A stretch of DNA of 64,000 nucleotides from Candidatus Jorgensenbacteria bacterium (GCA_011050075.1 DRGK01000012.1:771-64770), one strand, 5' to 3'; positions 23,059 through 57,320 are shown, numbered from the stretch's first letter. A program made the numbers and translations. Notes: a model not told the origin generated them from the sequence alone.

Positions 23059-23130
23059 GTTGTGGGGCCGAAATACTTTCATATTTCGGCATCCTACAAA
23101 AATATAGTCGCTTCGCTCCTTATTTTTGTG

Positions 23131-23450
23131 GAGGTGGAGGGAATCGAACCCTCGTCCGGAAACTGACTCAAAAACATTCTACGAGTGTGTCTCTTTTACA
23201 CAAAAGAGCAAAGAAATTTGTTTCGTGGTTTTTTCAACCCGGTTCAGCACGAAACGAACCGAACAAGGCGGGTCTCATTATGACGCCGCTACTTTCCTAT
23301 GAGACATCAGAAAACGGCGCGGTACTACGCGTATGCGAGTGCCGGAACTGCTGTTTTGTTGGCAGTTATAAAGTTTTGGTGCGTTTAACGAGTTCACCAG
23401 CTCGACCCGCAGTTTTCAAGACATTATCCCCGTCGAAGCCATGCACCCCC
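23131..23450 (-). ncRNA. ssrA: tmRNA (SsrA)
   Basis: The minus-strand 5' end is GGGGGTGCATGGCTTCGACGGGG and the 3' end is GGACGAGGGTTCGATTCCCTCCACCTCCA (tRNA-like domain). The internal tag reading frame is GCC AAC AAA ACA GCA GTT CCG GCA CTC GCA TAC GCG TAG, giving ANKTAVPALAYA*. smpB is immediately adjacent. Confidence 0.85.
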
Positions 23451-41403: not shown

Positions 41404-42771
41404 CTATTTGTAAAGTCTTTCTTTTATCAACATGACTTTCTGATTTAATCCAGAGTCATTGTTGATAGCTTTTGTTATTTTTTCACACGCGTGTATAGCG
41501 GTTGTGTGATCGCGTTTCCCGAGCTGCTCACCAATGTGTGGATATGAAAGTTTTAACGTATCGCGGAGTATGTACATACAAATCTGGCGAGGCTCCACTA
41601 TTTCTCTTTTCCTACTTCTTTTAGTAAGGTCGGCGACAGAAAGCTCAAAAAACTCAGCGACAGTATTGATAACAAAATCAGCTGATATTTTCTTTGATGA
41701 CGGTAGTGTTGTTTCTCCAATAATCTTTTCTAGCCTTTTGTCATTTATTTTTTCATTTTTAAACTCTTGATAGAACATAACTCTATTAATTACACCCTCA
41801 AGCTCCCGAATATTGTTTTGCACCTTTGTGGCAATAGTCTCAAGAATTTTTTCTTCAACATTCCACGCATTAGCCACAACTTTGTTTTTTAGGATAGCTA
41901 AACGAGTTTCGTAGTCGGGGTAGCTAATATCAGCAACCATCCCACCCTCAAAACGAGAACGCAGCCGCTCTTCAAGGGTTGGAATTGCTGCAGGAGGCCT
42001 GTCAGACGAGAGAATAATTTGTTTGTTTTGTTCATATAGAGCGTTGAACGTATGAAAAAATTCTTGCTCGGTAGCTGTTTTTCCTCCAATAAACTGAATG
42101 TCGTCAATAATAAGTACATCTATATTCCGATACTTCTTTTTTGTGTCTTCCATTCGCCTGTTGCGAATAGCCCACACAACATCATTGATAAATTTTTCTG
42201 AGGTAACATACAGCACGTGTACATTATTGTTGTATGTTTTGGTAATTTCATTTCCTATGGCTTGAATAAGGTGTGTTTTTCCTAATCCTACTTTTCCATA
42301 AATAAAGAGGGGGTTATACCGCTTTCCCACATGTTTAATAACCGCATGTGCGGCTGCGTGGGCGAGTTCATTTGATTGTCCTACAACATATGAATCTAAT
42401 TTATATCGTGGATTAAGATTCGTTTTAGGATCGGTTTGTGTGTCTATTAGAGAAGAAGACGGCTTGAAGACGTTTTTTTGTTTTTTTAGGGAAACGGGCT
42501 GAGAAGAGCTTACGACTACGTAATTAATTTTTTTAATAGAACCATCAAGATTACGAAGCGAACCTAAAATAAGTTTGTGATATCTGTTCTTTACCCACTC
42601 GCGTGCAAAGTTATTAGGAAGACTGACAGTTGCGACACCGCTTTTGTCGTCTGTCTTTAATAACTCGCTCTGCTTTAACCATGTAAGGAAATTTGGACGG
42701 GAAATCTGCGTCTCTATTTCTCCGAGTACTGCGCTCCAGGCGTCTTTGGTGTTTAGATTAGTTTTTTGCAT
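41404..42771 (-). CDS. dnaA: Chromosomal replication initiator DnaA
   Basis: The Walker A motif is GKVGLGKTHL. The C-terminal DNA-binding domain reads …SYPHIGEQLGKRDHTTAIHACEKI. Confidence 0.9.
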   Translation of the reverse strand: MQKTNLNTKDAWSAVLGEIETQISRPNFLTWLKQSELLKTDDKSGVATVSLPNNFAREWVKNRYHKLILGSLRNLDGSIKKINYVVVSSSQPVSLKKQKNVFKPSSSLIDTQTDPKTNLNPRYKLDSYVVGQSNELAHAAAHAVIKHVGKRYNPLFIYGKVGLGKTHLIQAIGNEITKTYNNNVHVLYVTSEKFINDVVWAIRNRRMEDTKKKYRNIDVLIIDDIQFIGGKTATEQEFFHTFNALYEQNKQIILSSDRPPAAIPTLEERLRSRFEGGMVADISYPDYETRLAILKNKVVANAWNVEEKILETIATKVQNNIRELEGVINRVMFYQEFKNEKINDKRLEKIIGETTLPSSKKISADFVINTVAEFFELSVADLTKRSRKREIVEPRQICMYILRDTLKLSYPHIGEQLGKRDHTTAIHACEKITKAINNDSGLNQKVMLIKERLYK

Positions 42772-43040: not shown

Positions 43041-43748
43041 ATGTTTGACGCGCTATTTTTTGAACCTATTTTAGCATTACTAAAGAGCATCTACAGTAAT
43101 GTTGCGTTTAGTGATTTAGGAATTGCAATAGTATTTCTTACACTACTCATTAGAGTAGTGTTGTTTCCGTTTTTTTATAGGAGCGCGAAAGATCAAGCGC
43201 TCATGAGAAAGATTCAACCTCATGTAGAAAAAATAAAACAAAAACATAAGAATAACCGGGAAGAACAAGGACGCGCCCTCATGGAGCTGTATCGCGAACA
43301 CAAACTCAACCCCTTTTCCAGTTTTTTAATTATTCTCGTACAGCTTCCTATTTTCTTTGCGTTGTTTAAACTATTCCGAGACAGTGAGTTCTTGGCGGAG
43401 ACATTTATTAATACAACCTTTCTTGGTGTGCTCCAGCTGAGCACTCCAAGTATTATGCTTGCGGTTGTAGCAGGAGCCCTCCAGTATATTCAAGGAAAAC
43501 TATCTCTTGGTAAACAGAAAAATCAAACAAAAGGAGGAACACAGAAATTTGTTGTTATGATGATATACTTTGCACCTATTCTTTCGTTTGTTGTGCTTAT
43601 AAGGCTCCCTGCGGCGCTAGGAATCTACTGGGTAATCTCAACCTTGTTTTCTATTGGACAGCAGTTTATGATTAACAAGAAATTAGAATCTAAAAATGAA
43701 GAATACGAGCGAAAAAATACTAAAAATGGTGGAGTTAATGGGGTTTGA
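43041..43748 (+). CDS. yidC: Membrane protein insertase YidC/Oxa1 family (short form)
   Basis: 235 aa with five hydrophobic helices. Its position after rpmH fits. No rnpA or yidD lies between them. Confidence 0.7.
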   Translation: MFDALFFEPILALLKSIYSNVAFSDLGIAIVFLTLLIRVVLFPFFYRSAKDQALMRKIQPHVEKIKQKHKNNREEQGRALMELYREHKLNPFSSFLIILVQLPIFFALFKLFRDSEFLAETFINTTFLGVLQLSTPSIMLAVVAGALQYIQGKLSLGKQKNQTKGGTQKFVVMMIYFAPILSFVVLIRLPAALGIYWVISTLFSIGQQFMINKKLESKNEEYERKNTKNGGVNGV

Positions 43749-44142
43749 TAGTGCCTGTATTACGGTACATGTCGATGAAGAATACAGAAAAATTTCACTT
43801 GTCATTGATGATGATATAGTGCGTGGAAATATAACACCCTCTGTACTTGCCGCGTTCAACCACTTATTTAACCAAGTTCTAAAAAAGGAAGGGAAGCCGT
43901 ATTATATAGTTGATCTTAATTACTATCGCAAAGAGCGCGAACGTCTCATAATAGAGCTTACCCGCGCAGCAGCGCGGAAGGCGGTTATTACCAAGCAGGA
44001 AGTAGAGCTACCGCCAATGAATGCATATGAGAGGCGGCTTATACACACCGAAATAGCAACTCACCCTGAACTTATTACACAGAGCACCGGAGAAGGAAAA
44101 GACAGAAGGGTGGTTATTAAACGTTTTATTGAAGGGGGTTGA
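43726..44142 (+). CDS. jag: Jag/KhpB-like RNA-binding protein (R3H domain)
   Basis: NAYERRLIHTEIATHPELITQSTGEGKDRRVVIKR is an R3H domain. The start is taken at an internal Met to avoid overlap with yidC. Confidence 0.7.
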   Translation: MVELMGFDSACITVHVDEEYRKISLVIDDDIVRGNITPSVLAAFNHLFNQVLKKEGKPYYIVDLNYYRKERERLIIELTRAAARKAVITKQEVELPPMNAYERRLIHTEIATHPELITQSTGEGKDRRVVIKRFIEGG

Positions 44143-44146
44143 AGAA

Positions 44147-45298
44147 TTAAGGGACAGGATTTAGGATTATTCTGTACAACCCTTGATCATACCGGTTTAT
44201 AAAATAAATCTTTCCGCCGAAGACCTTAACAGCCTCAGCGTCTATCGCTGAGATGCTGCTGGTATTACTATTGAGAATTAAGCTGATTTTGTTTGAGGCC
44301 CTATCAATGGTGTAAAAACTATCAATGGTGTAAAAACGTTTTTGAAAATAATCATCTGGCATTTGTGTGTTAGGAAGTTCTGGTGGAAACTCTTGTGGTG
44401 AAAAACAGTATATGTATGAATCTCCAACACCGCATTTTGAGGGAAGTGAAGCAAAGAATACAGGAATAATATTAGCAAGGTCTCGGTTAAGAATAAAAAA
44501 CTGAGATGGTAGGCTGAACTTAAATACTATATTGGCGTCCTGCACCCACTTTGTGATAATGCCTCGTTCGGGCGCCATCAATAATTTAAGATCCAGCGTG
44601 TCTAAAGTAAGTTGCCAGACGCGACTTGCATAGAACGACGCCGGTTTTTCTTTAATAATAAGTATATTAGGAGACAGGTATGTAAAAACAACATCATAAA
44701 GCTGGAAATTATTCACAAGCGTTTCGTAAGCGCCCACTGTTTCGCCTGATAATATTTTTGAAAGGTCAATGCGGGACAGGTAAAGGCTGTCGCTGTCCTG
44801 TACAATGCCGATAAGTTTGTTGCTATTCTCTCCCCACATTGCGTATGTTGCCGGGAGTGCAAGAGGGCGCCAGACTTTATCAAGTACATCAAATATGCTC
44901 CAGTCGGGGTTTTTAGGATCGCCGAATGCAACAAGTATCTTTTTGCCGTCTGGGCTTATATCAATAAAATTTAGTGCGGTAATGGTTCGAGTTGATACGT
45001 CTGGATCAGGGCCCTTTTTAGCGTTCAAAACTTTCCCATCAAGCGTCAGATAGTAAACTTCACCGTCTCGCGGACTACTCCAGTAATCAAATACTAATAA
45101 CCCATCATCCGACAACTTAGTGAGCTGAAATGCAGGCGCAGACGGAGCTTCTTCCTCGCTGTCTTCAGGAGCAATAGGAAATTCTATGACAGGTCTTTCA
45201 GGGCGCTCAGGCGAAATCTTTTTCCATGCAAGAAAAAGCGCCAATATAACTACAAGAATTAAGCTGCCTATAAGAGCTATTTTATATATGGGTTTCAT
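44147..45298 (-). CDS. Membrane-anchored/secreted hypothetical protein (last gene of the secretion-like cluster)
   Basis: An N-terminal TM helix (IALIGSLILVVILALFLAW) precedes a large extracytoplasmic domain with repeat-like beta-rich segments. Confidence 0.4.
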   Translation of the reverse strand: MKPIYKIALIGSLILVVILALFLAWKKISPERPERPVIEFPIAPEDSEEEAPSAPAFQLTKLSDDGLLVFDYWSSPRDGEVYYLTLDGKVLNAKKGPDPDVSTRTITALNFIDISPDGKKILVAFGDPKNPDWSIFDVLDKVWRPLALPATYAMWGENSNKLIGIVQDSDSLYLSRIDLSKILSGETVGAYETLVNNFQLYDVVFTYLSPNILIIKEKPASFYASRVWQLTLDTLDLKLLMAPERGIITKWVQDANIVFKFSLPSQFFILNRDLANIIPVFFASLPSKCGVGDSYIYCFSPQEFPPELPNTQMPDDYFQKRFYTIDSFYTIDRASNKISLILNSNTSSISAIDAEAVKVFGGKIYFINRYDQGLYRIILNPVP

Positions 45299-45301
45299 TA
45301 T

Positions 45302-46114
45302 TTATAAACATTTTTTTAGACCTTGAAGACCAGGTTTTTTAAATTTTTCGTCCTCAACACTTATTTTATAAGCGTAAACAATACATTTTAGTTCCTCGAT
45401 CTGAGGAGTGCTTGTTGCGCCCGGGACCGTATTTTTTGGGTAATAAACCCATTGGTAGTAAATACCAGCTCCAACCGTAGGTTTTACAGCTGTATTCCAG
45501 TCCCCCCACTGGGTAGGACAGGGACTACTAATTTCGCTCCGATAACACTTCGGTATTTTCATATCACTGGACCACGTGACCGGCGAAGCACAATCACTCA
45601 TTATATCTTTAGGACAACCTGCTGTTAGACCATACCCAAGACCGGGAACACAACATTGCGGGGTCGCTTCAGGGTCATCGGGATCTTTTATGGGCCGTTT
45701 CCCCTCCCCACATTCGTTTTTGACAGGATTTTTTTCTCCGCAGGAATATATAGTAATCCCCTCTCCACCCGGTGGACTGAGATCTACCAGCTCGGGATTT
45801 ATAGTGTTTAGAATTGTGTAAGCGCCGAGGAGCAGTACCAAGCCCCACACAGCTGAGGTTATAATATCTTTTCCCTCACGCTGCTTATCTTGACTCCCTC
45901 CCGAGACCACGTAGTAAATAGCCCCAATAACTATCATTACTACGGCAGCAAGACCGGCAATAGCGACCGCTGACATATAGAAACTGTTAATATACTCAAC
46001 AATGTTTGTTGAACCCGCTTCAGGAAGCTCAAAAACTACGGGTTCTTGCGCCCACACGACAGTTAACGGGACAAGAAGAATAAACAGGAAAAAGAGAAAA
46101 ATTAGTTTTTTCAT
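45302..46114 (-). CDS. Pilin-like protein: a signal peptide, two adjacent hydrophobic helices, then a ~150-aa domain with 10 Cys
   Basis: The signal peptide is MKKLIFLFFLFILLVPLTVVWA. The TM pair is MSAVAIAGLAAVVMIVIGAIYYVV / IITSAVWGLVLLLGAYTIL (a VirB2/TrbC-type arrangement). The Cys-rich C-terminus follows. Confidence 0.4.
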   Translation of the reverse strand: MKKLIFLFFLFILLVPLTVVWAQEPVVFELPEAGSTNIVEYINSFYMSAVAIAGLAAVVMIVIGAIYYVVSGGSQDKQREGKDIITSAVWGLVLLLGAYTILNTINPELVDLSPPGGEGITIYSCGEKNPVKNECGEGKRPIKDPDDPEATPQCCVPGLGYGLTAGCPKDIMSDCASPVTWSSDMKIPKCYRSEISSPCPTQWGDWNTAVKPTVGAGIYYQWVYYPKNTVPGATSTPQIEELKCIVYAYKISVEDEKFKKPGLQGLKKCL

Positions 46115-46120
46115 AGATTT

Positions 46121-46813
46121 CTACCGTATCGTTAATCTAACATTTGACCTTGTTGTTTCAATCGAATTAAGGGAGTTTGACGTTATATTAGATATTAGAA
46201 CTTCCTCTCCTGATAAATAGGGGGAATCACCTATATCTAAAACAAGGCGATTACTTCTCTGCTTTGGCTGATTCTGATTATCAATGCTCCAGAAGAACTC
46301 GAAATTATCAAAAGAGACAACGTTGAAAAAATAAGGCACCGCATGGAAAACTATCTGCCTCTTTCTAAACACTATATTGTTAGGACTGGGCATTTCAATT
46401 ACCGTGCGCTGGCCTGAAACGGGAACCGTGAAAGAACCCTCGATTCTTTCTCCGTCTAAGTCAATGCTCATTCGTACAAAATACTCATCGCCGCGCAGCT
46501 TGTTGATTTTAAGTACTATTTCACTTAGTCCGCTGCCGCGACTGAAAAACCTTCCGTCTATATACCATATAAAATTTGCCTTAGAAGTATCTACAAACCT
46601 GTTGTTTCGTATAACGGTTGCTGAGATGACAATAGAGGTATTAATAGTGGCGGCTGCTTTGCCTGAGTAGTTTGACGGATAAAAATTATGGGCCTGCCAC
46701 GTGAAAATAACTTGTGGTGAGGGCGCCTGAGCGAACGCCATTGGTAGAAGGTAGCCAGCAACGAGAAGCCCGCAACAGACAGTAAATATTAATGTTTTAT
46801 GAAGTGTACTCAT
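46121..46813 (-). CDS. Secreted hypothetical protein
   Basis: An N-terminal signal/TM is present. Length is 230 aa. Confidence 0.4.
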   Translation of the reverse strand: MSTLHKTLIFTVCCGLLVAGYLLPMAFAQAPSPQVIFTWQAHNFYPSNYSGKAAATINTSIVISATVIRNNRFVDTSKANFIWYIDGRFFSRGSGLSEIVLKINKLRGDEYFVRMSIDLDGERIEGSFTVPVSGQRTVIEMPSPNNIVFRKRQIVFHAVPYFFNVVSFDNFEFFWSIDNQNQPKQRSNRLVLDIGDSPYLSGEEVLISNITSNSLNSIETTRSNVRLTIR

Positions 46814-47151
46814 TTTGCTGGTTTGACTACCGACCTTACCATTTTTTGCGCTAATTTAGGGTTATTGTGAAGTCTTGTTTCAATTATAAATGCGGCAAAC
46901 GTAGTAGGAACGAAAGGAAGTACATTTGAAAACTGTTTTATTAATTGCCGCTCCAGACCCATCGCTTTTTTACCTCCCTTGAACATCAACCATAATGTGG
47001 TGCTGAAGCTTGTTGCCGCCTGAAGTAGCGTAGCAATAAACCACCCTATGGCCGGGATAATGTCCAGCAATGCTGAGACAATATCTATTGAGAGCGTAAA
47101 CATTCCTCCGATAACCACCTCCGCTGTTGAAAATTTACTATGTTCGCCCAT
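46810..47151 (-). CDS. Small integral membrane protein, hypothetical
   Basis: 113 aa with 2-3 TM helices. It overlaps its neighbours by 4 nt. Confidence 0.4.
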   Translation of the reverse strand: MGEHSKFSTAEVVIGGMFTLSIDIVSALLDIIPAIGWFIATLLQAATSFSTTLWLMFKGGKKAMGLERQLIKQFSNVLPFVPTTFAAFIIETRLHNNPKLAQKMVRSVVKPAK

Positions 47152-47154
47152 AAT

Positions 47155-48912
47155 TTATTTTTGTTGTGATTTTTTCAACTCAAGTACCTGCTCGGGGTCC
47201 GTGGTAATTATCCGGTCTTCAGTATAAGAAGCTACTATTTTCATTGCAACGTGTTTAAGCCCTACAAAAAACAATCCCTCTCCTACACGCGCTTCTAATA
47301 AGAATGACTTCTCACTGTCAGTGAGACCGAAAGCGTCTCCGACTGCATTTATACTTGCAGGAGACTGTTTCATAAGCAATTGAAGTGAAGAATTGGTAAT
47401 AATAGGTTTTCCGTACTCCGAGTTAAAGAAATCCTCCACGTTTTGAGTGATAGTGGTAAGTCCAAGGTAGTATTTTCTAGCCCGTTTTGCCAGTCCGAAA
47501 AGAAATGCAGCGCTATATTTGTACTGCATCATCCACCACGCTTCATCTATAATGAGCAACCGGCGCTTGAGCTCAGAACGCACAAGCGTCCATACAAAAT
47601 TAAGCACAATATACATTGCGATAGGCCGCAACTCTTCTTCAAGGTCACGAATTGAAAACACGATGAAGCGATTGGATATATCAACATCCGTAGCATTATT
47701 TGTGAATCCGGCATACGAACCACGCACATATTTTTCCAAGCGCTGGGCAATTCCTTCCGCCCCTTCGGTATTCTGGAGAATGGTTTGCAAGTCTTCCAAG
47801 AGGGGCGGGTCAAGCTCCTTATTTGTACCAAAAGTTTCTGCAGTAATATCGCGTGCGGCGTATGTTTCAATGATTGCACGGTCGAGCAACGAATCTGCCT
47901 CCGGAGAAAGCTCTCCAACCATAAGTTTAATAAGTCCGGTGAGGTTTAAAACGTGCGATTTGAATACGTTCGCCGGATCCTCGTCTTCCGGGATAAGCGG
48001 TATGTCAAACGGGTTAATGTTATGCGGCGAAGTGAGTGATATCTTGAAAAAACTGCCACCAACGGCATTCGCGAGATTTTGATACTCATTTTCCGGGTCA
48101 ATAACAATAACGTCGGTGCCCATCATGAGCGTTCGCAGTATTTCTAGTTTTGTTGCGTACGACTTTCCGGCGCCTGACTTGGCGAACACAACTTGATTTG
48201 CATTTGGTAGCGCAAAGCGATCGAAAATAATCAGCGAATTATTGTGCATATTGACTCCGTACAACACCCCCTCATCAGAGGTAAGGTTAGGGGACACAAA
48301 AGGAAAAAGAGAGGAAACGGGACCGGTATTGAGAGACGTATGTATGCTTAATTTATCTTGACCAACGGGGAGTACGGTAGTGAAGCCGTCCATTTGCCGA
48401 AAGAGCGCAGGTTTGATATACACTAGTTTTGCCTCAAGCGTGGAAATAATAACCTGCTCAAGCTTGTTGAGTTGTTCAATACTTGAGCCGTACACAGTCA
48501 TATATACTCCAACCTTAAAGAGCCGTTCAGTTCCTTGTTGGAGATCGTCGCGAAGTTTCTCCACGTCGCGATACGCGGTCTCAAGTCGAGGACTGCGCAC
48601 CAACCCCTTGTCTTGGCGTTCGGAGAGCTCTGCTTCTATGTGCGCCACTTTCTTTTGAAAGCCGCGTAGCGCGAGAGGAGTATCCATAGGATGTACGTGA
48701 ATACTGACGTCCATCATTTCGGCGAGGTTGATAATGGGAGAAAACCAACCGCTTGAGATATATCGCGGGTAGGTAAAAATAAAGAATGTTTTCGCAAAAT
48801 AATTACCCAACTTGATATGATTTGATGTTTCCTCAATTCCCGCTGGCGCAACGACATTAACAATATCCTCTTCTAAAGGCTTATTTGGCTGAGGTACTTT
48901 AATATCAGGCAT
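47155..48912 (-). CDS. VirB4/TrbE/CagE-like secretion ATPase (ATPase portion)
   Basis: The Walker A motif is FAKSGAGKSYATK. The Walker B motif LLIIDEAWWMM is the DEAW signature of VirB4-family ATPases. Length is 585 aa. Confidence 0.55.
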   Translation of the reverse strand: MPDIKVPQPNKPLEEDIVNVVAPAGIEETSNHIKLGNYFAKTFFIFTYPRYISSGWFSPIINLAEMMDVSIHVHPMDTPLALRGFQKKVAHIEAELSERQDKGLVRSPRLETAYRDVEKLRDDLQQGTERLFKVGVYMTVYGSSIEQLNKLEQVIISTLEAKLVYIKPALFRQMDGFTTVLPVGQDKLSIHTSLNTGPVSSLFPFVSPNLTSDEGVLYGVNMHNNSLIIFDRFALPNANQVVFAKSGAGKSYATKLEILRTLMMGTDVIVIDPENEYQNLANAVGGSFFKISLTSPHNINPFDIPLIPEDEDPANVFKSHVLNLTGLIKLMVGELSPEADSLLDRAIIETYAARDITAETFGTNKELDPPLLEDLQTILQNTEGAEGIAQRLEKYVRGSYAGFTNNATDVDISNRFIVFSIRDLEEELRPIAMYIVLNFVWTLVRSELKRRLLIIDEAWWMMQYKYSAAFLFGLAKRARKYYLGLTTITQNVEDFFNSEYGKPIITNSSLQLLMKQSPASINAVGDAFGLTDSEKSFLLEARVGEGLFFVGLKHVAMKIVASYTEDRIITTDPEQVLELKKSQQK

Positions 48913-48939
48913 ATGATTTGTGACGAGTAAAGAGAACTA

Positions 48940-49593
48940 TCATTCTTTTGTTTGTGATTCAGCTCTGCGACGCTCGATAAGTTGAGGATTGTAGAGATTG
49001 TAGTAGAGCTCTGTCAACTCATCATCATTAAGGGGGGTTGTGTGTAAGCCAATCTGCTCAAGTCCGGCGGTAACCTCGTCAACGCGATAGTTAAGCTGCT
49101 CAACATGTTTAGGGGCACCGTCTGTTACTTGCTTGTCTTTGTTTTGTTTTTTTGATTTTGAGAATAGCCCGAGAATATTCTTTTTTGCTTGCTCAACAAC
49201 CACAATGGGATCATATGGAATCACGACAAAGAAGTCTTTTGAGATGATAGGGTTTTTTTCGACGAATGAACTGATAAATTCACCATACTCTTCTATTTGC
49301 AGCTGAAGTAGTTCGTTTGGTTCTTCCACTTTCCGCGCTTCAATTTTTTCAAGGTATGCGCTGATATTTATCTTGCGTGAATGAACAAAGAACTGTATAG
49401 AGAAATCTAAAGCGTTCAGAAAGCTTTGAAAACTATTCAGTGTGAGTTGCTGCTCTTCTTGGGATTTGAGGTCAAAATTAATGCCATTTACCATTAATAC
49501 CTTACGCAAGCCACCTTGCTTGAGGTATAAAACACCGTTTTTAATTTCTTTTATAACAACAAATTGTTGCGATGCCGCTATCTGTTCAGCCAT
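48940..49593 (-). CDS. Hypothetical protein; possibly the separated N-terminal domain of the VirB4-like ATPase
   Basis: 217 aa, ending 24 nt upstream of the ATPase ORF. The combined length (~800 aa) equals a full-length VirB4. Confidence 0.3.
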   Translation of the reverse strand: MAEQIAASQQFVVIKEIKNGVLYLKQGGLRKVLMVNGINFDLKSQEEQQLTLNSFQSFLNALDFSIQFFVHSRKINISAYLEKIEARKVEEPNELLQLQIEEYGEFISSFVEKNPIISKDFFVVIPYDPIVVVEQAKKNILGLFSKSKKQNKDKQVTDGAPKHVEQLNYRVDEVTAGLEQIGLHTTPLNDDELTELYYNLYNPQLIERRRAESQTKE

Positions 49594-49636
49594 GGTTATT
49601 TCTATTGTACTTGTTTACCTGAATACTTTATAGGGT

Positions 49637-50152
49637 TTATGTATTTTCTTTATAGTCAACTCGTTTTGCAAGTCGCCTTTCGCCGGTGAGATAAGAAACA
49701 ACCTGATACTCATTTCTTTGCCCTCTTTGCTTATCTTTTTTCCTGAAAAGTGGAATGGCGCCAGTGGTAACGTTCAGTGCTGCGGTTTTTATCTTTTCCT
49801 GCAGGCTCATGTTTTGTCGCATGACGTGGATTCTTTCAGCGCTTGAGGCGTCTATAGTTACAGTTGGCAACTCTCGTTTCCATGCGTAGCGTTTAGGTTT
49901 CTGCCAGTACGTGAGTGCGGCGCCAATGAGTGATGGTAGGGGCAAGCCATTTATTTTTACGAACGCTAAACTTAAACCTACCGCACCGACAATTGCGGCA
50001 ATAAGAAAGGATAAAAAAGGAATATTTATAGTGTAGAACGCGAGAATACCTATAGCGGCCGCGCCGCCTATGTAGAAAAACTGAGTGAGCGTAAGCGGCC
50101 CAACAATTTTAGGTTTTTCTTCAATAAATTGTGGAACTTGAAACTGGGGCAT
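49637..50152 (-). CDS. Small 2-TM membrane protein in the VirB3/PrgI-like position upstream of VirB4
   Basis: 171 aa. The hydrophobic hairpin is IGGAAAIGILAFYTINIPFLSFLIAAIVGAVGLSLAF. Confidence 0.35.
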   Translation of the reverse strand: MPQFQVPQFIEEKPKIVGPLTLTQFFYIGGAAAIGILAFYTINIPFLSFLIAAIVGAVGLSLAFVKINGLPLPSLIGAALTYWQKPKRYAWKRELPTVTIDASSAERIHVMRQNMSLQEKIKTAALNVTTGAIPLFRKKDKQRGQRNEYQVVSYLTGERRLAKRVDYKENT

Positions 50153-50176
50153 GAAATAAGTTATAGGTGTTGGGTT

Positions 50177-51055
50177 TTAGGTATTAGTGTTACGAAGGTC
50201 AACGGTGTTTCCATCAAGTTTCGGTCCTCGTTCCTTTTTCTGCTTCGCAACCCCACCGCTTTTTAGTGAGGGCGACCGTTGCGTCCCTTGCTCACTTTTT
50301 TGTGGTGGGATGTTTTGATACGGTATAGCCCCTTTGCTCGCAGGACCGAGTTTAGTGAGGTCTATGAATCCTTCTCCCATCATACCACCCGGCACGGGCG
50401 TACGCAGTTCACTATAGTGAACCGTGTGACTACCTCCTTTCTTTTTTGGTGTAGTAATACGAGCGACAGGCGTCTCGCTTTTTATTACTCCTTTTTGTTT
50501 GAATATGCCGGGGGAAAGAATAAAACTTCTCCGCGGAGTTTTTGTTTTTGAAACAGAAACCCGCTCTTCTTGGTGGATGATCTTTGGTTCCTGCGACGTA
50601 ATTGGTGCCAGCGGAACAATTTCCTCCTCTTTTATTTTTGACACTCGTTCTTTGGTGACACCTTCCTTCTGGTAAGTCGTGGCTTTAGTTTTTTTAAGTG
50701 CGATACCTCCTTCTACGTCAATGAGGTCAATGTTAATATCCCAGTCGGAGAGGGACGCTTCTATTGGCTTCAGTATATTTTCTTTGAGCTCTATAGCAAT
50801 GGATTTTGCTTTTTCCGGTCCAATGGTGAGTTCTTGAGATATTGCATCAACGAATTCTGCCGCGTGAAGGTCTTTAACTTCTAATCGGAGAAGAAGCCGC
50901 GGAATAATACGAACCCGTTCTTCTCGAAGCCCCAGTTTTTCATTAAGCTCCATCATAAAGTAGGTGGTTTTCTCTGAACTAATCCAACTGCGGATATCCT
51001 CAGGGACTTCTTGGAGAGTATTCTGGAGAGAACTTTGTGCGAGTGTAATAGCCAT
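50177..51055 (-). CDS. Hypothetical cytoplasmic protein of the cluster
   Basis: 292 aa with no TM helices and a Lys/Pro-rich C-terminal half. Confidence 0.35.
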   Translation of the reverse strand: MAITLAQSSLQNTLQEVPEDIRSWISSEKTTYFMMELNEKLGLREERVRIIPRLLLRLEVKDLHAAEFVDAISQELTIGPEKAKSIAIELKENILKPIEASLSDWDINIDLIDVEGGIALKKTKATTYQKEGVTKERVSKIKEEEIVPLAPITSQEPKIIHQEERVSVSKTKTPRRSFILSPGIFKQKGVIKSETPVARITTPKKKGGSHTVHYSELRTPVPGGMMGEGFIDLTKLGPASKGAIPYQNIPPQKSEQGTQRSPSLKSGGVAKQKKERGPKLDGNTVDLRNTNT

Positions 51056-51057
51056 AG

Positions 51058-52890
51058 TTATGCTTGCAAATTAGGATTAGCTTGGATGAATTTCCTGTTC
51101 GCTCTAAGTTGTTTGCGTTCCTCGGCGGACAACTCTTTCTTGTTCATCTTTTTCTCTCCTTCTTCCCATCCTTTCTCCAGGGCTTCTTTTTGTTCTGGAG
51201 AGCCGTGTGAACTAATGCGCTTGAGTTGAGGATGTGAAAGACTAGTGAAGACCTCAGGATTTTTGAGTGCACCCTTGTCTATGTCTGCTGCCTTGTCTGC
51301 CCTAATACCGCTTACAGTTTCCTGAATAGTTGAGCCAAGTTGCTCTGCATAGTCGGGTCTGGTCGATAAGATGTTTTTTGATGTCCCGGTGTCACGTACG
51401 CCTTTGAATAACCTGTCTCGGCTTTCCGGGCTTATTTTATCCATCCGTCCGCGTTCAGCAAGCTCTGCCGCGGTTGCTGCAGCATTAATTGGATTAGCCA
51501 TAGGCCCTGCAAACCCTGCTCTATTGTCAAGATCTGCGTTCGTAATATTTCCAAGCCCTTTCTGACGTTCCTTAACAATATCAGCCAAGCCCGCCTTTGC
51601 TTTACCGATACGTTCAGCAGTTCCCCTGAACGCTCTTCCTACACCAGGAATTCGAGCAAGTCCGCCCGCCGCTCGCTCTGCAAAAGAGGTTGTTTCACCC
51701 CTTTCGTTGGTCTTGGTTCCTGCAGTGAGGGCTCTTCGGCCGAGCGCTCCACCAAGTGCTCCGGCGGCTCCAAGGGGAACTTTTGCTGCCCCAATCGCCT
51801 GTTTCTGAGCCCACTTCCGGCTCGTTTTACCTGCTCCTTGCGCCATCTTTATTGCCGCCCCAGCACCCGCAATACCCATTTTATTAGCCGCAATAAGCCC
51901 TCCCATAAGCAGTGCAGCAATGACCAACATTTGGGACCCCTGTCCCAGAACACCCCCAAGTTCGGGCTGTATATTGGGAATGCTTGACCTATCTGCAAGA
52001 GCCTCCGCGCTCGTAAGTGTAAGAAAGATGAAAAAAGATATTGCGGGCGCAAAGAATACCCATTTAAAGAAACTGCTCCACCAGTCATTAAAATATTTTG
52101 ATAGACCTGGAAGTATCCAGAATAACCACGTTATGGGAGCTAAAATAATAAGAAGTGATAGTATAATAAAACGAGCAAGGAGCATAAATGCGAGAGCAAA
52201 AAAGACAAATGCGGTGAGACCGGTAAAAATAACCGTAAAAACAGTTTTTGTAATATCCGTAATTGCTGCTTCACTGAAGAAAATACTTCCCCCCGCTTTT
52301 GCGCTGGAAGGATCAGGCGGAAGAGGGTCCTCACCCGCACCTGCGACACCCTCAAGATTAAGACGTTGCGGCTGAAACGCGCCGGTAATGACCGTAGAAA
52401 TGCTTGAGGTTTCCGCGCCGATTCTTTCTTTAAGAAAAAAATTTGTAAATACGTTGGAGAAATTGATGATAGTAATTGCTATAACGAAGCTGAAATTTAC
52501 GATGATAGCCGCGGCAATGAGCTTTGGGAGTAATTTCTTAGCTTCATACTCTTTGAAGCGAATAATCGTTGTGAAAGCAATAATGATTATTACTAAGACA
52601 AAACCAAGATTAGCAATATCTCGCACAATACCCCACCCAATCGTAATAAGAGTATTCTCATCGCTAAGGAAATCCATATTAAGACCGAAGGCTATATCAA
52701 CAAGTCCTCCCGCAAAAGAGAGGAGGATGCCGATAATGAAACCTGCGATCGCGCCGAGTATCTTAATAACAAAAGCAACGGTGTCACCGCCTATCTTGAA
52801 GAGCTGACCGTGTACCGGTTGCGGTAAGAGAAGAAGTAGTGCCAAGAGACCGAAGCCTATAGATGTCTTATTTTTTAGAAAACGGTTCAT
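51058..52890 (-). CDS. Polytopic membrane protein, VirB6/TrbL-like
   Basis: 610 aa with an N-terminal signal, at least 6 TM helices and a long Ala/Gly/Lys-rich cytoplasmic C-terminal tail. This architecture is typical of VirB6-family channel subunits. Confidence 0.4.
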   Translation of the reverse strand: MNRFLKNKTSIGFGLLALLLLLPQPVHGQLFKIGGDTVAFVIKILGAIAGFIIGILLSFAGGLVDIAFGLNMDFLSDENTLITIGWGIVRDIANLGFVLVIIIIAFTTIIRFKEYEAKKLLPKLIAAAIIVNFSFVIAITIINFSNVFTNFFLKERIGAETSSISTVITGAFQPQRLNLEGVAGAGEDPLPPDPSSAKAGGSIFFSEAAITDITKTVFTVIFTGLTAFVFFALAFMLLARFIILSLLIILAPITWLFWILPGLSKYFNDWWSSFFKWVFFAPAISFFIFLTLTSAEALADRSSIPNIQPELGGVLGQGSQMLVIAALLMGGLIAANKMGIAGAGAAIKMAQGAGKTSRKWAQKQAIGAAKVPLGAAGALGGALGRRALTAGTKTNERGETTSFAERAAGGLARIPGVGRAFRGTAERIGKAKAGLADIVKERQKGLGNITNADLDNRAGFAGPMANPINAAATAAELAERGRMDKISPESRDRLFKGVRDTGTSKNILSTRPDYAEQLGSTIQETVSGIRADKAADIDKGALKNPEVFTSLSHPQLKRISSHGSPEQKEALEKGWEEGEKKMNKKELSAEERKQLRANRKFIQANPNLQA

Positions 52891-52897
52891 TTATTTA

Positions 52898-54697
52898 CTA
52901 TTCGCTTTCTTCACACTGGGCTAAAGCAGTTCTTGCTTTTCTAAAAAGAAGATCTATTTCTTCTTGGAACACGGCTGTTATACCAAGAGGTGGCTCAAGC
53001 GATGCCTCGGCCCACTCCTTAAGAGAAGTTCGGCGTTCAAAGTTTGTTCCTCTTGTTACCCATTTTGCCTTGTCATTTATTTTTCTATTCAACGAGTTAA
53101 AGGTAAGCTCAACATCTTTCATTGAACTCCCAACCGAGACTGTTCCGACGAGCACTTTTTCCACCACCTTTCGCACTAACAACTCAAGTTTTGACATATC
53201 CAAAGAAGAAACACCGATAAACGAACCTCGTTTTTCGGCTTCTGCGATTGTGCTTGAGACATTGGTTGCGCTTATTTCAAGCCCTTGTAAGCCTTCAATA
53301 GAATTAAAGAACTGTTCAAAGTTGAGCGTTGAGGATGTTATCTGAACGCGGAGGTCGGCGTTTCTGCTTAATGTATCTATTGTTACATTATCGAGCAGCT
53401 TGACCGCTTCCGTATATTGATTAAATGCAGTCGCGAGTTCAGTATCAATATCAGAAAACTGATTCTCACCGATGGCAATTGTTTCTCCCTTGTTTTCAAA
53501 GCACGTTCTCAACTCACCGAGCTTCTCCATCAACTCGTCATTAAGAACTTGAGTGTCTCTAATTGTTTCTACGCCTTCCTCTATCTGTTCTTTTGCGTCT
53601 GTCGCTATGTGTCTACTTAGTTTCTTACTGAAGAATTTCTGTAGACTTTCCCTTATTTTTAAAATAGGTCCAACAGCCTTACATGCTACTTTCACACCAC
53701 CCTCCAAATCATCACAGTTTTTTTGTTGGGTATAATTGCGTTCTGTCGTCGCATATGCAAGCCCTTGCACGGTTTCTTTGGTCAAACGATTAATTCCTGC
53801 ATTAATTGCCGCAGCAAGAATTTGTTGAAGACTTTCCGAGTTTTGCAAATATGCTATATCAGCAAAGAGAGCCTGTGTGATGGCTTCGGATGCGACCTTA
53901 CCCGGTGTAATGGTTTCTGGTTGTGTGCACCCCCAATTTGAACCAATTGGTCGGTCGGTCTTCCCTGTGTATGGAATTCCATCTGGAGTATTATCGTAAA
54001 CTCCCGATCCGGAAGCCGTCATACCAATAGTCCACTCATTCCCCCCTTCGTCCGTATAAGCGGTGATAACCTTCCATTGATTACACCGCTTCTGTCCAAG
54101 AAAACCTGCGCCAATTGTTGCTTCGTAGCGAGCTGTTTCGGTCCTACTATTTGTTCTTCTTAGAAGCTCGTCTTGGGTGAGCAGGGATATCCCTGAGGGA
54201 GTATTTTGTAGCTTAAGCGACTCTTGATATGCAATCCAGCCCCCCGTTTTAAAGTCGTTTTTGAAAGCTCCAATATTTTTCACGATATCGTCTAGCGTAC
54301 AACTCACCCGTTGTGAAAAAATGGGCTGCATAAGTTCGACTCTCAGCTTAAATCTGGATGGTTGATAACAAAGATTTGCCATATCAAGCTCTAAGACAGT
54401 GTCGCCGACAGCGGCCTGGAATGCGTCGCCTATGACACCTTCAAAGTTTTGAATAAATCGAGGATCTTCCTCCCCTTTAATGTATGTTACGATGCTGTCG
54501 GTAATCATATCAAGAAGCCGCTTCTTGAACGTTTCTATAACAGTCTTTATCAAGGTATCCGTTAACCACTCTCCAACTTTCGGTAAATCAATACCTATAT
54601 CAATGACTCCGAGAACGGCATTTGCACGCAAGGGATATGCAACTCCCGTGAGCAGCATAATTAATAGCAAGAAGCTGGCAAGTGCTTGTTTTCCCAT
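52898..54697 (-). CDS. Large secreted hypothetical protein of the cluster
   Basis: 599 aa with a signal peptide (MGKQALASFLLLIMLLTGVAYPLRANA). Confidence 0.4.
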   Translation of the reverse strand: MGKQALASFLLLIMLLTGVAYPLRANAVLGVIDIGIDLPKVGEWLTDTLIKTVIETFKKRLLDMITDSIVTYIKGEEDPRFIQNFEGVIGDAFQAAVGDTVLELDMANLCYQPSRFKLRVELMQPIFSQRVSCTLDDIVKNIGAFKNDFKTGGWIAYQESLKLQNTPSGISLLTQDELLRRTNSRTETARYEATIGAGFLGQKRCNQWKVITAYTDEGGNEWTIGMTASGSGVYDNTPDGIPYTGKTDRPIGSNWGCTQPETITPGKVASEAITQALFADIAYLQNSESLQQILAAAINAGINRLTKETVQGLAYATTERNYTQQKNCDDLEGGVKVACKAVGPILKIRESLQKFFSKKLSRHIATDAKEQIEEGVETIRDTQVLNDELMEKLGELRTCFENKGETIAIGENQFSDIDTELATAFNQYTEAVKLLDNVTIDTLSRNADLRVQITSSTLNFEQFFNSIEGLQGLEISATNVSSTIAEAEKRGSFIGVSSLDMSKLELLVRKVVEKVLVGTVSVGSSMKDVELTFNSLNRKINDKAKWVTRGTNFERRTSLKEWAEASLEPPLGITAVFQEEIDLLFRKARTALAQCEESE

Positions 54698-54703
54698 AAA
54701 TTA

Positions 54704-55519
54704 TTATAATTCAGCTAACAGTTCTTCATAGAACTGATTCATTATTGACTGGATATCTTGCTCTTTCTGAATAGCGATTGGAAGCAGCTGCAAAGAAACG
54801 TATGTTTTAGCCGGGTCAGACTTGAAACTGAGAACCCCTTGGTAAATAGCGAGCTTTTCCTGCCACAGATTCAACACCTGAACATGAAGCTCTTTCCATA
54901 TACCCGGCGTTTCAAGTTCCAGAAGATCATCAAGGTAGGCAGGTATGGTATTAATTAGGCTGTCCAACAGTCGCGAGTCACCCTCTTGAAAGAAAGCGTC
55001 AAGAGCGGTAACCGTGTTCTCACCCTCAAATTCACTAAAATGTTCCCACAAAAGTGTATCCAATGACTTTATATAAGCGATTTGATTTTCTATAGAATCA
55101 TCTAATGAAACGACAACGTCCTTTGTGGTGAATTGGGGATAATCGAGAGGGCGCGCTGTTGCCTCCTGAAGTGCCTGTGTCACCCCCTCTTCAGAGAGTA
55201 TAACTTCTCCACCACTTTCAAGTAGGCTATTGGTGAATGACAGCGTTAGAAGCTCGGTGAGATTATCAGAACTTTCTTCGTTTAGTTCTGGCGTAATTGA
55301 AACTTTGGCGGTTTTAGGTCTTAAATCGCCTGATTCAAACTGGAAACTTGGATTATCATTTGCACGAGCAGCAACCACAGAAGCATTACGCTCGTCCACT
55401 TTACTCTTTTGAGGAGTGATTATAAACACACTTGCCGCTAACCCTGCAAGGAGAATAACAAAAGCCGCAATTTTCCTTTTATTTCGCATGGAATACAGCA
55501 TGTTATGATAATTATACAC
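54704..55519 (-). CDS. Membrane-anchored hypothetical protein (first gene of the cluster)
   Basis: 271 aa with an N-terminal TM helix (IAAFVILLAGLAASVFII) and an acidic extracytoplasmic domain. Confidence 0.4.
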   Translation of the reverse strand: MYNYHNMLYSMRNKRKIAAFVILLAGLAASVFIITPQKSKVDERNASVVAARANDNPSFQFESGDLRPKTAKVSITPELNEESSDNLTELLTLSFTNSLLESGGEVILSEEGVTQALQEATARPLDYPQFTTKDVVVSLDDSIENQIAYIKSLDTLLWEHFSEFEGENTVTALDAFFQEGDSRLLDSLINTIPAYLDDLLELETPGIWKELHVQVLNLWQEKLAIYQGVLSFKSDPAKTYVSLQLLPIAIQKEQDIQSIMNQFYEELLAEL

Positions 55520-55548
55520 GATTTATGTAACGTTCCTAACTGCGTATT

Positions 55549-56190
55549 ATGTCAATGTTTACGAAGCTTTTAAAACTGCCAGGAGGATTAGTTCTTCTTA
55601 CGATTGTTTTGGTTTTTCTTGCCAATATTAATCCTTTTCAACTACACGAAGGTCCATATTATGAGATTTTTGCCGTATTTGGAGCCATGGTGTGGATGTT
55701 GATGGTCTCGCTTATAGTAATCTGGTTCGTTTTCAAAGAAAAAATTGAAGACTATGGATGGATATTACCAAAAAATAAGAGTAAAGCCGTCCTACTTACA
55801 TTTCTTTCAATAACTATTCTTACTCCTGTTATGGTTTTCTTTGGAACACAAGATTCATTCCGAGAATTTTATACTTTGCAAAGTGTTTCTATAGGGAACT
55901 TTTTATTAACGAGCGTGGTCCTGTCCTTTGTATATTATATAGCTGAAGAATTTCTATTCCGCGGATTTCTTTTCTGGGGACTGTTTCATAAAGTTGGATA
56001 CCACAGTTTTTGGATAACGAGTAGCGTGTTCGCTCTGTTTCATATTACGAAGCCCCTACTTGAGATTCCTTTCGCTTTTTTTGCAAGTTTACTATTCTGC
56101 TACCTTTCTTTTAAGACAAAGTCTTTTGTCCCGGCTTTTGTGGTTCATTTTACAATAGCACTTATACTAAATACATTAATTTTCATATGA
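55549..56190 (+). CDS. CPBP-family intramembrane metalloprotease (CAAX protease/Abi)
   Basis: The motifs are EEFLFRGFLF and FALFHI. Confidence 0.7.
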   Translation: MSMFTKLLKLPGGLVLLTIVLVFLANINPFQLHEGPYYEIFAVFGAMVWMLMVSLIVIWFVFKEKIEDYGWILPKNKSKAVLLTFLSITILTPVMVFFGTQDSFREFYTLQSVSIGNFLLTSVVLSFVYYIAEEFLFRGFLFWGLFHKVGYHSFWITSSVFALFHITKPLLEIPFAFFASLLFCYLSFKTKSFVPAFVVHFTIALILNTLIFI

Positions 56191-56970
56191 GAACGTGTGT
56201 ACAAGGTCCTTAACTACGCTCGCAGAGAGTTCTTGAGGACGCATACCAGGATCAAGTCCCGCTCGTTTCAGTTTTACCGAGACTTTTTCCTTAGTAGTTT
56301 CAGTAATTTCCGCGGATAAATTATTGAGAATAGTTTTTCGCGGCTGTTTAAAGAGGGTTTTAATAAATTTGTAGTAGTTTTCGGTCTCTCCGGTCGTTAT
56401 TTTTTGTTCCTTGGTTGTTAGTTTTATTACTGCGCCATCCACTTCCGGTTGTGGCTGATAGTCGGTGCGTGAAATGGTGGTTATGATCTGTGCGTCAGCC
56501 CAGAATTGTACGCTTGCGGCGAGTAGATTCATACGCGGTGGTTGAGCTGAAATGCGCTCCGCAACCTCTTTTTGGATACCGAGTATGGTAATTGTTGGTT
56601 TGTACTCCAATTCGCTTATTATGCGCAGGAGACGACCGGTGATGTAAAATGGAATATTCCCAACGAGTTTGTAGGTACCGGCGTCTAATGTTTTGGTAAT
56701 CTGCGGCAGTATTTTTAGAGCATCGTCGGTGACAATTTCTATGCGGCCATCGTCGCTAAATTTTTTCCTGAGCGCCGTTGCGAGTTTTTCGTCTCGCTCT
56801 ATAAGAACAAGTTTTTTGAAAGTGCCAGAGTGAATAATTTCTTTGGTTACCTCACCATGTCCGGGGCCGATTTCTATAACTATGTCGTGTTTTTCTAGAT
56901 CAAGCGCATCTACAAACTGCTTAATTTTCCGCTCATTTTTCAAGAAATGTTGGCCTAGTCGTCTACGCAT
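56176..56970 (-). CDS. rsmA: 16S rRNA (adenine1518/1519-N6)-dimethyltransferase RsmA/KsgA
   Basis: The N-terminus is GQHFLKNERKIKQFVDAL and the SAM motif is VIEIGPGHGEVT. Confidence 0.85.
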   Translation of the reverse strand: MRRRLGQHFLKNERKIKQFVDALDLEKHDIVIEIGPGHGEVTKEIIHSGTFKKLVLIERDEKLATALRKKFSDDGRIEIVTDDALKILPQITKTLDAGTYKLVGNIPFYITGRLLRIISELEYKPTITILGIQKEVAERISAQPPRMNLLAASVQFWADAQIITTISRTDYQPQPEVDGAVIKLTTKEQKITTGETENYYKFIKTLFKQPRKTILNNLSAEITETTKEKVSVKLKRAGLDPGMRPQELSASVVKDLVHTFSYEN

Positions 56971-57150: not shown

Positions 57151-57222
57151 GCCCCTGTAGTTCAAGGGATAGAACAAGCCCCTCCTAAGGGCTAGATCTC
57201 CGTTCGATTCGGGGCAGGGGCA
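57151..57222 (+). tRNA. tRNA-Arg (anticodon CCT)
   Basis: GCCCCTGTAGTTCAAGGGATAGAACAAGCCCCTCCTAAGGGCTAGATCTCCGTTCGATTCGGGGCAGGGGCA folds as a cloverleaf. The anticodon loop is CTCCTAA. CCA is not encoded. Confidence 0.8.
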
Positions 57223-57228
57223 CAGGTA

Positions 57229-57320
57229 GGTGGGGTGGCTGAGTCCGGTCGAAGGCGCCGCACTCGAAATGCGGTATGCCCGAAAGGGTATCGTGGGTTC
57301 GAATCCCACCCCCACCGCCA
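57229..57320 (+). tRNA. tRNA-Ser (anticodon CGA), long variable arm, CCA encoded
   Basis: GGTGGGGTGGCTGAGTCCGGTCGAAGGCGCCGCACTCGAAATGCGG…GTGGGTTCGAATCCCACCCCCACCGCCA has the anticodon stem-loop CCGCA-CTCGAAA-TGCGG. Confidence 0.8.

Follow-up and report, generated by a model that had tools for sequence, protein, structure and literature searches.

An Eleven-Gene Type IV Secretion Cluster of the Known Patescibacteria Type, Most Likely Non-Conjugative, Beside dnaA in a Paceibacteria Genome

A gene cluster for a type IV secretion system (T4SS) was analyzed in a 64,000-nucleotide stretch of DNA from a Candidatus Jorgensenbacteria bacterium (GCA_011050075.1 DRGK01000012.1:771-64770; the whole stretch is hereafter the window). 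The cluster consists of eleven co-directional open reading frames (ORFs) at 44147-55519, all on the minus strand, and these encode a monoderm-type inner-membrane T4SS core (a split VirB4, a VirB3/PrgI, a VirB6/TrbL and a VirB2-like pilin) together with six orphan proteins (g271, g599, g292, g113, g230 and g383). This is the known T4SS of the Patescibacteria (CPR), which most of these ultra-small bacteria have beside dnaA; the cluster is an ordinary further copy, in agreement on every point with the description of Quiñonero-Coronel et al. 2025 (PMC12102498). The system is chromosomal, most likely non-conjugative and more probably devoted to contact-dependent exchange with a host cell, since the cluster lacks a relaxase and a coupling protein, lies in a housekeeping locus by dnaA and has a homolog that is essential to a Saccharibacterium in its epibiotic growth. 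The source genome is a Paceibacteria relative of Ca. Jorgensenbacteria. A previous sequence-only reading of the same DNA had also seen a chromosomal, non-conjugative secretion machine, and this is borne out below by the same chromosomal slot in about 40 species, the correlated divergence of VirB4 and DnaA and the lack of conjugation genes. The novelty claimed for it was overstated, as the system, its missing relaxase and its near-origin position were described phylum-wide in 2025 (PMC12102498).

A Split VirB4 Motor of the CD1110 Family

The motor of the system is the 585-amino-acid (aa) protein encoded at 47155-48912, in the translation of which the Walker A motif GAGKS and the Walker B motif DEAW were both present, as previously read. 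With 379 bits, this protein clears the cut-off of 325 set for NCBIfam NF045971 ("VirB4-like conjugal transfer ATPase, CD1110 family"), and it also matches PF19044 (Pfam P-loop_TraG) at 93.6 bits. Among PDB sequences, it matched the VirB4 domain 4ag5 at 1e-43 and R388 TrwK at 5e-6. By profile and by best matches the ATPase is a true VirB4 and belongs to the Gram-positive CD1110 type, not to the FtsK/HerA type, a grouping that would have spoken against the T4SS assignment.

The 585-aa protein covers only positions 188-732 of the 752-position VirB4 profile, with the middle and C-terminal P-loop domains. At positions 8-105, this CD1110 profile is covered by the 217-aa protein encoded at 48940-49593, which also matched NF041427 TrsD/TraD (1e-7) and whose orthologs carry PF26593 TraC-like. 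In a BLASTP comparison with a full-length, 797-aa Clostridium VirB4, the 217-aa ORF aligned at residues 33-187 (E 3e-7); against the same protein, the 585-aa ORF aligned at residues 205-757 with 32% identity (E 2e-93). The 217-aa ORF is not an orphan, then, but a TrsD-like protein corresponding to a detached N-terminal domain of VirB4, and the alignments indicate that VirB4 is here split into a TrsD-like N-domain protein and a motor ORF.

The TrsD ORF ends with TGA TAG, in frame with virB4, and the same split was seen in every relative examined; it is therefore not an artefact of sequencing or decay. The split is also the published norm (PMC12102498), and a separate TrsD-like ORF linked to virB4, as in the Patescibacteria-clade T4SS, is present here. 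Recoding (code 25) and a pseudogene split between the TrsD and VirB4 ORFs were both considered and rejected, given the TGA TAG end, the other genes, which are clean in table 11, and the presence of the split in all relatives as the usual published state.

Membrane Proteins and Pilin

The 171-aa protein with two transmembrane (TM) helices is encoded two genes upstream of virB4 (49637-50152), the position from which a VirB3/PrgI identity had been proposed. It exceeded the cut-off of PF12666 PrgI (37.4 bits; cut-off 27) and matched the PrgI of a Clostridium botulinum plasmid by BLASTP (2e-5).

The 610-aa polytopic protein encoded at 51058-52890 showed in a TM scan about six TM segments, all within residues 38-340, and a low-complexity cytoplasmic tail of 270 residues rich in Ala, Gly and Lys. 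Searched by itself, it gave a faint TrbL signal (E 8.1, residues 98-330 against profile positions 2-210) and a faint CD3337/EF1877 signal. Two of its homologs (P0015 and P0016; 46-47% identity over 93% of the TM domain) matched the whole TrbL profile with 29-30 bits (cut-off 25.9), and a precomputed PF19590 TrbL_3 match is carried by most of the 78 homologs found. An AlphaFold2 (AF2) model of residues 1-400, built from a 72-sequence alignment, had a pLDDT of 82.8, and when it was compared with the PDB by Foldseek the top seven matches were all R388 TrwI/VirB6 chains, with a probability of 0.99-1.00, E values from 8e-3 to 0.1 and TM-scores of 0.43-0.55 on the target. The full VirB6-family profile, when run against PDB sequences, reached TrwI just at E 0.36, amid low-complexity matches. 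Homologs and modelled fold together assign the 610-aa protein to the TrbL/VirB6 family, the membership formerly read from its polytopic build and long tail; an absence of such similarity would have been a serious objection to that reading.

The 270-aa protein encoded at 45302-46114, in which a pilin-like signal and a two-helix N-terminus had been noticed, is a VirB2-like pilin, with 41.8 bits against PF18895 T4SS_pilin (cut-off 26.6) and a match to NF045849 at 7e-5. A signal peptide is followed by the T4SS_pilin domain, with two TM helices, at residues 35-105; a C-terminal extension of 165 aa then holds most of the 10 Cys residues of the protein. T4SS_pilin was matched in 11 of the 11 pilin family members scanned and TrbC/VirB2 in two of them as well. 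The orthologs (loci L003-L044) are 206-561 aa long, compared with approximately 140 aa in Saccharibacteria, and the extension suggests a variable, surface-exposed appendage, perhaps adhesin-like.

Such an appendage could belong to an organelle for adhesion only, in which VirB4 would power a fibre of extended pilin that tethers the cell to its host and no substrate would pass. Its Cys-rich extracytoplasmic extension, as different in length among relatives as adhesins are, would fit this explanation, and VirB4 is the motor of pilus biogenesis in studied systems (PMC12102498). However, Patescibacteria already attach by type IV pili (PMC10633639) and a PilB-type ATPase is encoded within the window, while a fibre would hardly seem to call for the retained VirB6 with its long cytoplasmic tail. 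A purely adhesive role is therefore considered improbable.

A Fixed Chromosomal Locus Without Conjugation Genes

The best 80 genome loci for VirB4 all belonged to Patescibacteria (80/80; 46-76% identity). The nearest ones (72-76%) are labelled Ca. Jorgensenbacteria, Paceibacterota or Minisyncoccia, and those of Saccharibacteria stand at 46-48%; the grouping with Patescibacteria VirB4 proteins is that of best matches. When synteny was mapped across related genomes, the same order recurred in about 40 species-level genomes: ksgA, g271, g599, VirB6, g292, PrgI, TrsD, VirB4, g113, g230, pilin and g383, followed past g383 by jag/yidC on the opposite strand and then by dnaA and dnaN. Nineteen loci covered the interval from end to end; tblastn detected 8-11 of the 11 genes in them, and 13 of these loci were fully collinear. 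As to the other six, the pilin gene and g383 are swapped in L025, L026, L028, L031 and L033, and L032 is also non-collinear, with its pilin gene also farther downstream; the rest of the cluster is collinear in these loci.

The identities of VirB4 and DnaA were correlated across 50 loci (Spearman 0.88, Pearson 0.98), with a Spearman coefficient of 0.48 within the close clade. Both the fixed housekeeping locus and the co-divergence of VirB4 and DnaA speak for a vertically inherited system rather than an integrated mobile element.

A search through the 11 cluster genes, the 8 genes flanking them and another 20 large ORFs of the window brought up no relaxase, type IV coupling protein (T4CP), VirB11 or integrase, the same four absences having been remarked before. 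The further ORFs scanned encode Mur ligases, a Clp ATPase, aminoacyl-tRNA synthetases, PolA, RuvB, PBP1 and similar proteins. The sole T2SSE-type ATPase among the scanned ORFs is a 562-aa PilB-type protein (29226-30914, plus strand) about 13 kb from the cluster, with T2SSE at 8e-117 and an MshEN N-domain; being of the PilB type with an MshEN domain, it is assigned to a type IV pilus and not to VirB11. No VirB1-like peptidoglycan hydrolase was recognised, SLT, CHAP, lysozyme and peptidase domains being absent from the 11 proteins and from 90 family members, and a hydrolase of this kind is usually absent near virB4 in Patescibacteria (PMC12102498). For a VirB8-like protein (NTF2-like fold), no sequence or profile match was obtained with any cluster protein in a comparison made at the sequence level only.

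The alternative that these genes are an integrated conjugative element or its remnant, that is, a recently acquired Gram-positive-type apparatus whose relaxase, T4CP and integrase were lost or lie outside the window, is very hard to sustain. In its favor, VirB4, PrgI, VirB6 and their order resemble Bacillota plasmid systems, two tRNA genes lie 1.6 kb past the cluster, and other parts of Patescibacteria genomes commonly encode VirD4 homologs (PMC12102498). Yet the tRNA genes are separated from the cluster by the CPBP and ksgA genes, no GC anomaly accompanies the missing integrase, relaxase and T4CP, and the nearest VirB4 proteins are all from Patescibacteria at 46-76% identity, against at most 35% for those of plasmids. 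Neither the relaxase and T4CP of a conjugative element nor an integrase was found among the ORFs scanned in the window; the flanks are housekeeping genes, and in place of a variable location about 40 species have the cluster at one and the same locus. The conjugative alternative is thus largely refuted by the synteny, with the same ksgA...jag/yidC/dnaA slot in those species and a divergence that tracks DnaA.

Gene Packing and Flanks

ORF calling and translation confirmed the eleven minus-strand ORFs at exactly the coordinates first proposed for them. In transcription order, they encode proteins of 271, 599, 610, 292, 171, 217, 585, 113, 230, 270 and 383 aa. Their tight packing was confirmed as well, with intergenic gaps of 2-43 nucleotides (nt), but of the several 4-nt overlaps formerly described a single one was found, at 46810-46813 between g113 and g230. 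The GC content of the cluster (0.41-0.47) is similar to that of the remaining window. Operon boundaries were not clear from promoter and terminator scans. No Shine-Dalgarno sequence was recognisable within 25 nt upstream of any of the eleven genes (44147-55544), and the upstream regions are A/T-rich.

The cluster lies, as first read, between jag and the gene of a CPBP protease, both on the plus strand. Beyond its lower-numbered end are jag/R3H (43696-44142, plus strand), yidC (43041-43748, plus strand), dnaA (41404-42771, minus strand; 1.4 kb from the cluster end) and dnaN (40164-41276, minus strand). On the other side are the gene of the Rce1-like CPBP protease (55549-56190, plus strand), ksgA (56176-56970, minus strand; 0.7 kb from the cluster end) and the two tRNA genes (57151-57317), followed by leuS. 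A position beside the replication origin had also been proposed; the adjacency to dnaA and dnaN stands, but the origin itself was not located, as DnaA boxes were not enriched (15 matches against 15.3 expected).

Six Accessory Proteins

No Pfam or NCBIfam match was obtained for g271, g599, g292, g113, g230 or g383. Six such proteins without recognisable domains, all with a signal peptide or a TM anchor, had been listed by the sequence-only reading; the lack of domains held for the six and anchoring or secretion for five, g292 being soluble and largely disordered. Profiles of g599, g383, g271 and g230 run against PDB sequences gave coiled-coil noise or sub-threshold WD40 hints only, and in Pfam scans of 31 g599 members and 90 members of other families the pilin domain was the sole match. 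Profile hidden Markov models (HMMs) detected each of the six families in 25-39 related loci and five of them (not g113) also in distant Paceibacteria-type loci, e.g., Campbellbacteria. None was detected by the same means in 34 Saccharibacteria loci, which keep VirB6, PrgI, TrsD, VirB4 and short pilins.

The first cluster gene, g271 (54704-55519), encodes an acidic protein anchored at its N-terminus by one TM segment (residues 17-35), probably a helical extracytoplasmic protein, with syntenic HMM homologs in 25 related loci. Its translation probably begins with the ATG at 55489, because the ortholog alignment begins at 'KRKI'; the listed GTG is probably too far upstream.

The secreted g599 (52898-54697), always directly upstream of VirB6, has a signal peptide and a conserved N-domain of about 300 aa (53693-54616, minus strand) in which C110, C133, C205 and C257 are invariant or near-invariant. 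Its C-terminal half is a variable coiled coil closed by the conserved C399 and C595. In a library of 1.84 billion proteins, the N-domain family, for which no Pfam model exists, had 2163 representatives (50% identity clusters) that reached E<=1e-3 and 936 that reached E<=1e-10; among the matches listed, the best were mostly of 450-700 aa. A 99%-identical fragment came from a marine-sediment metagenome. The AF2 model of g599, made from a 10-sequence alignment, was unusable (pLDDT 39, predicted TM-score 0.23). A deeper search with a 31-sequence alignment returned the same 8 proteins, probably because coiled-coil words swamp the word index.

The soluble g292 (50177-51055) has no TM segment and is largely disordered after a helical N-domain of about 100 aa. 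Short motifs are kept across its divergent orthologs (P-F/L-I-L-H-x-E; VVHYSE-x-RTP; and a C-terminal GN-x-I/V-DLR), as would be expected of docking motifs, and g292 may be a candidate cytoplasmic adaptor. Its HMM matches, in 36 related loci, always lie between VirB6 and PrgI. The small membrane protein g113 (46810-47151) has 2-3 TM segments and conserved E11, D23, D30, P79, P82 and N96, and was matched in 36 loci directly downstream of virB4. The secreted, beta-rich g230 (46121-46813) has conserved W39, W83 and W175 and matches in 39 loci. The last cluster gene, g383 (44147-45298), encodes an extracytoplasmic protein with an N-terminal TM anchor at residues 7-25, matches in 35 loci and weak WD40/beta-propeller-like signals, the matches to WDR5 being sub-threshold (E 0.04).

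Counterparts of these families were also sought in Gram-positive systems by hhalign. Nothing was found when the family alignments were compared with the CD1112 VirB6, the small ORF after VirB4 and the spacer ORF between PrgI and VirB4 of pCDC3875, or with PrgF, PrgG, PrgH and PrgL of pCF10, in comparisons of low power that missed PrgH and the CD1112 VirB6 too. In particular, g113 had no match to PrgF/PrgG or to the small post-VirB4 ORF at this low power.

The secreted orphans also bear on whether the T4SS exports effectors, injecting proteins, possibly some of these orphans, into the host to manipulate or kill it. Effector export has been speculated for Saccharibacteria (PMC10633639, PMC11665869), the cluster encodes several Sec-dependent secreted proteins, and two exporting systems, Bordetella Ptl and Brucella VirB, do without a T4CP (PMC12102498). 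Still, no T4CP is nearby to recruit cytoplasmic substrates, candidate effector domains were not found in the cluster proteins by Pfam and NCBIfam scans, and the secreted orphans are conserved in an unchanging order, as structural parts would be, and do not show the variability of effectors. This explanation is possible, though rather unlikely.

Comparison With Known Systems

VirB4 is encoded in 2,417 of 3,035 Patescibacteria genomes, as a clade nested in the monoderm MPF_FATA class, and TrsD, PrgI/VirB3, VirB6 and VirB2-like pilins are found near it, with relaxases rare and T4CPs mostly distant; in Paceibacteria, the T4SS is close to dnaA, dnaN, rnpA and ksgA (PMC12102498). The window cluster shows no difference of substance from this Paceibacteria arrangement, and its VirB4, 72-76% identical, is that of another species' copy. 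In Ca. Jorgensenbacteria GW2011_GWA1_48_11 (LCPF01000001), all eleven genes are orthologous and collinear, the locus is likewise beside ksgA, rnpA/yidC/jag, dnaA and dnaN, and no relaxase or T4CP is nearby in either genome. The six accessory families were left unannotated in PMC12102498; in the present analysis they proved conserved throughout loci of the Paceibacteria type, and none was detected in those of Saccharibacteria.

Southlakia epibionticum ML1 (SEML1_0006-0019) and other Saccharibacteria have a like core order (VirB6, PrgI, TrsD, VirB4) and VirB2-like pilins, with dnaA/dnaN within about 10 kb and relaxase and T4CP absent from the cluster. By contrast, their VirB4 is 46-48% identical to that of the window, and several proteins are much longer (VirB6 900-1200 aa, PrgI 250-370 aa, TrsD 250-350 aa), whereas the pilins are short (about 140 aa) and arrayed, and the six orphans have no detectable counterpart there.

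The MPF_FATA systems (pCF10 Prg/Pcf; pGO1/pIP501 Trs/Tra; Clostridium CD1110-type) share with the window cluster a CD1110-family VirB4, PrgI and a VirB6 placed before PrgI/VirB4, and the pGO1 subclass a separate TrsD-like ORF as well. The best plasmid VirB4 matches were from Bacillota and Actinomycetota, of the CD1110 family, with 29-35% identity over >90% of the length, and the core order VirB6, PrgI, VirB4 is common to C. botulinum pCDC3875, E. faecalis pCF10 and the window cluster. The two plasmids additionally carry VirD4, a relaxase and a cell-wall hydrolase. None of the relaxase, VirD4, VirB1-type hydrolase (PrgK/SLT), VirB8-like PrgL and LPXTG adhesins of MPF_FATA was recognised in the window cluster, which has in turn a VirB2-like pilin that the Gram-positive systems lack, and which is chromosomal and fixed while those elements are mobile. 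With the MPF_T systems (R388 Trw/Agrobacterium VirB), the cluster has in common VirB4, VirB3, the VirB6 fold (TrwI being the best PDB match) and a pilin of the VirB2 family. It differs from them in having no outer-membrane core (VirB7/9/10), VirB5, VirB8, VirB11 or VirD4, and its match to TrwK is marginal (5e-6).

Other Features of the Window

The PilB-type ATPase gene described above (29226-30914, plus strand) marks a second surface machine in the window. A 1183-aa IleRS-like class I aminoacyl-tRNA synthetase (tRNA-synt_1, Anticodon_1, DUF5915) is encoded at 23913-27464 on the minus strand, and it contains an internal His_Phos_1 domain (residues 500-655, E 9e-29), an unusual insertion or fusion. 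A transfer-messenger RNA gene (Rfam RF00023, 136 bits) lies at 23126-23450 on the minus strand.

Discussion

The cluster is thus best explained as a chromosomal Patescibacteria T4SS, probably for contact-dependent exchange with a host cell. By analogy with studied T4SSs, VirB4 hexamers, with TrsD, would dock on VirB3/PrgI and VirB6; VirB4 would drive the extraction of pilin from the membrane, and a VirB2-type tube would be assembled with VirB6 as its base. The orphans g271, g599, g113, g230 and g383 might form the part that crosses the wall or lies at the surface, with the disordered g292 as a putative adaptor at the cytoplasmic side. In preference to classical effector export, we favor a pilus or conduit that would take up host-derived macromolecules; exchange with the host, probably uptake, is preferred because no coupling protein is adjacent and these organisms depend on host nucleotides.

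A role in host interaction, which the sequence-only reading had also suggested, agrees with the literature on these bacteria (PMC12102498, PMC10633639, PMC12857230). By transposon sequencing, a homologous T4SS and pilins were shown to be essential to Southlakia epibionticum in its epibiotic growth, with comEC dispensable (Wang et al. 2023, PMC10633639). Reviews call the function of the T4SS unknown and discuss effector delivery or the uptake of host molecules (PMC11665869, PMC12857230), and a 2026 preprint describes tubular structures at the place where a cultivated relative, which takes up host RNA and feeds on it, meets its host (bioRxiv 10.64898/2026.06.21.733656).

Several points weigh against the explanation given here. 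No VirB8-like or VirB1-like component was recognised in the cluster, and a T4CP or relaxase could lie beyond the 64-kb window, VirD4 homologs being present in most Patescibacteria genomes, usually far from virB4 (PMC12102498). The 610-aa protein itself is below the Pfam TrbL threshold, so its assignment to VirB6 draws on homologs and modest fold scores. No role could be assigned to the six orphans, and the single structure prediction attempted among them (g599) failed. The function was read here from genes alone; the direction of transport is pure inference, and a host-derived substrate is likewise putative.

The six orphans and the extended, Cys-rich pilin might together form an undescribed T4SS envelope or surface module that replaces VirB8, VirB1 and VirB5 and builds a host-piercing import conduit, a proposal that we put forward tentatively and consider doubtful as yet. 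It is in these Paceibacteria-specific orphans and in the pilin that the residual interest of the locus lies, for the copy in the window offers no new principle; it is a clean, complete example of the Paceibacteria version. In these abundant bacteria, most of them uncultured, few machines have been shown to be essential to epibiotic life, and the Patescibacteria T4SS is one of them. With this copy, six conserved, unannotated partner proteins have been delimited, for which structural and genetic work on the class must account.

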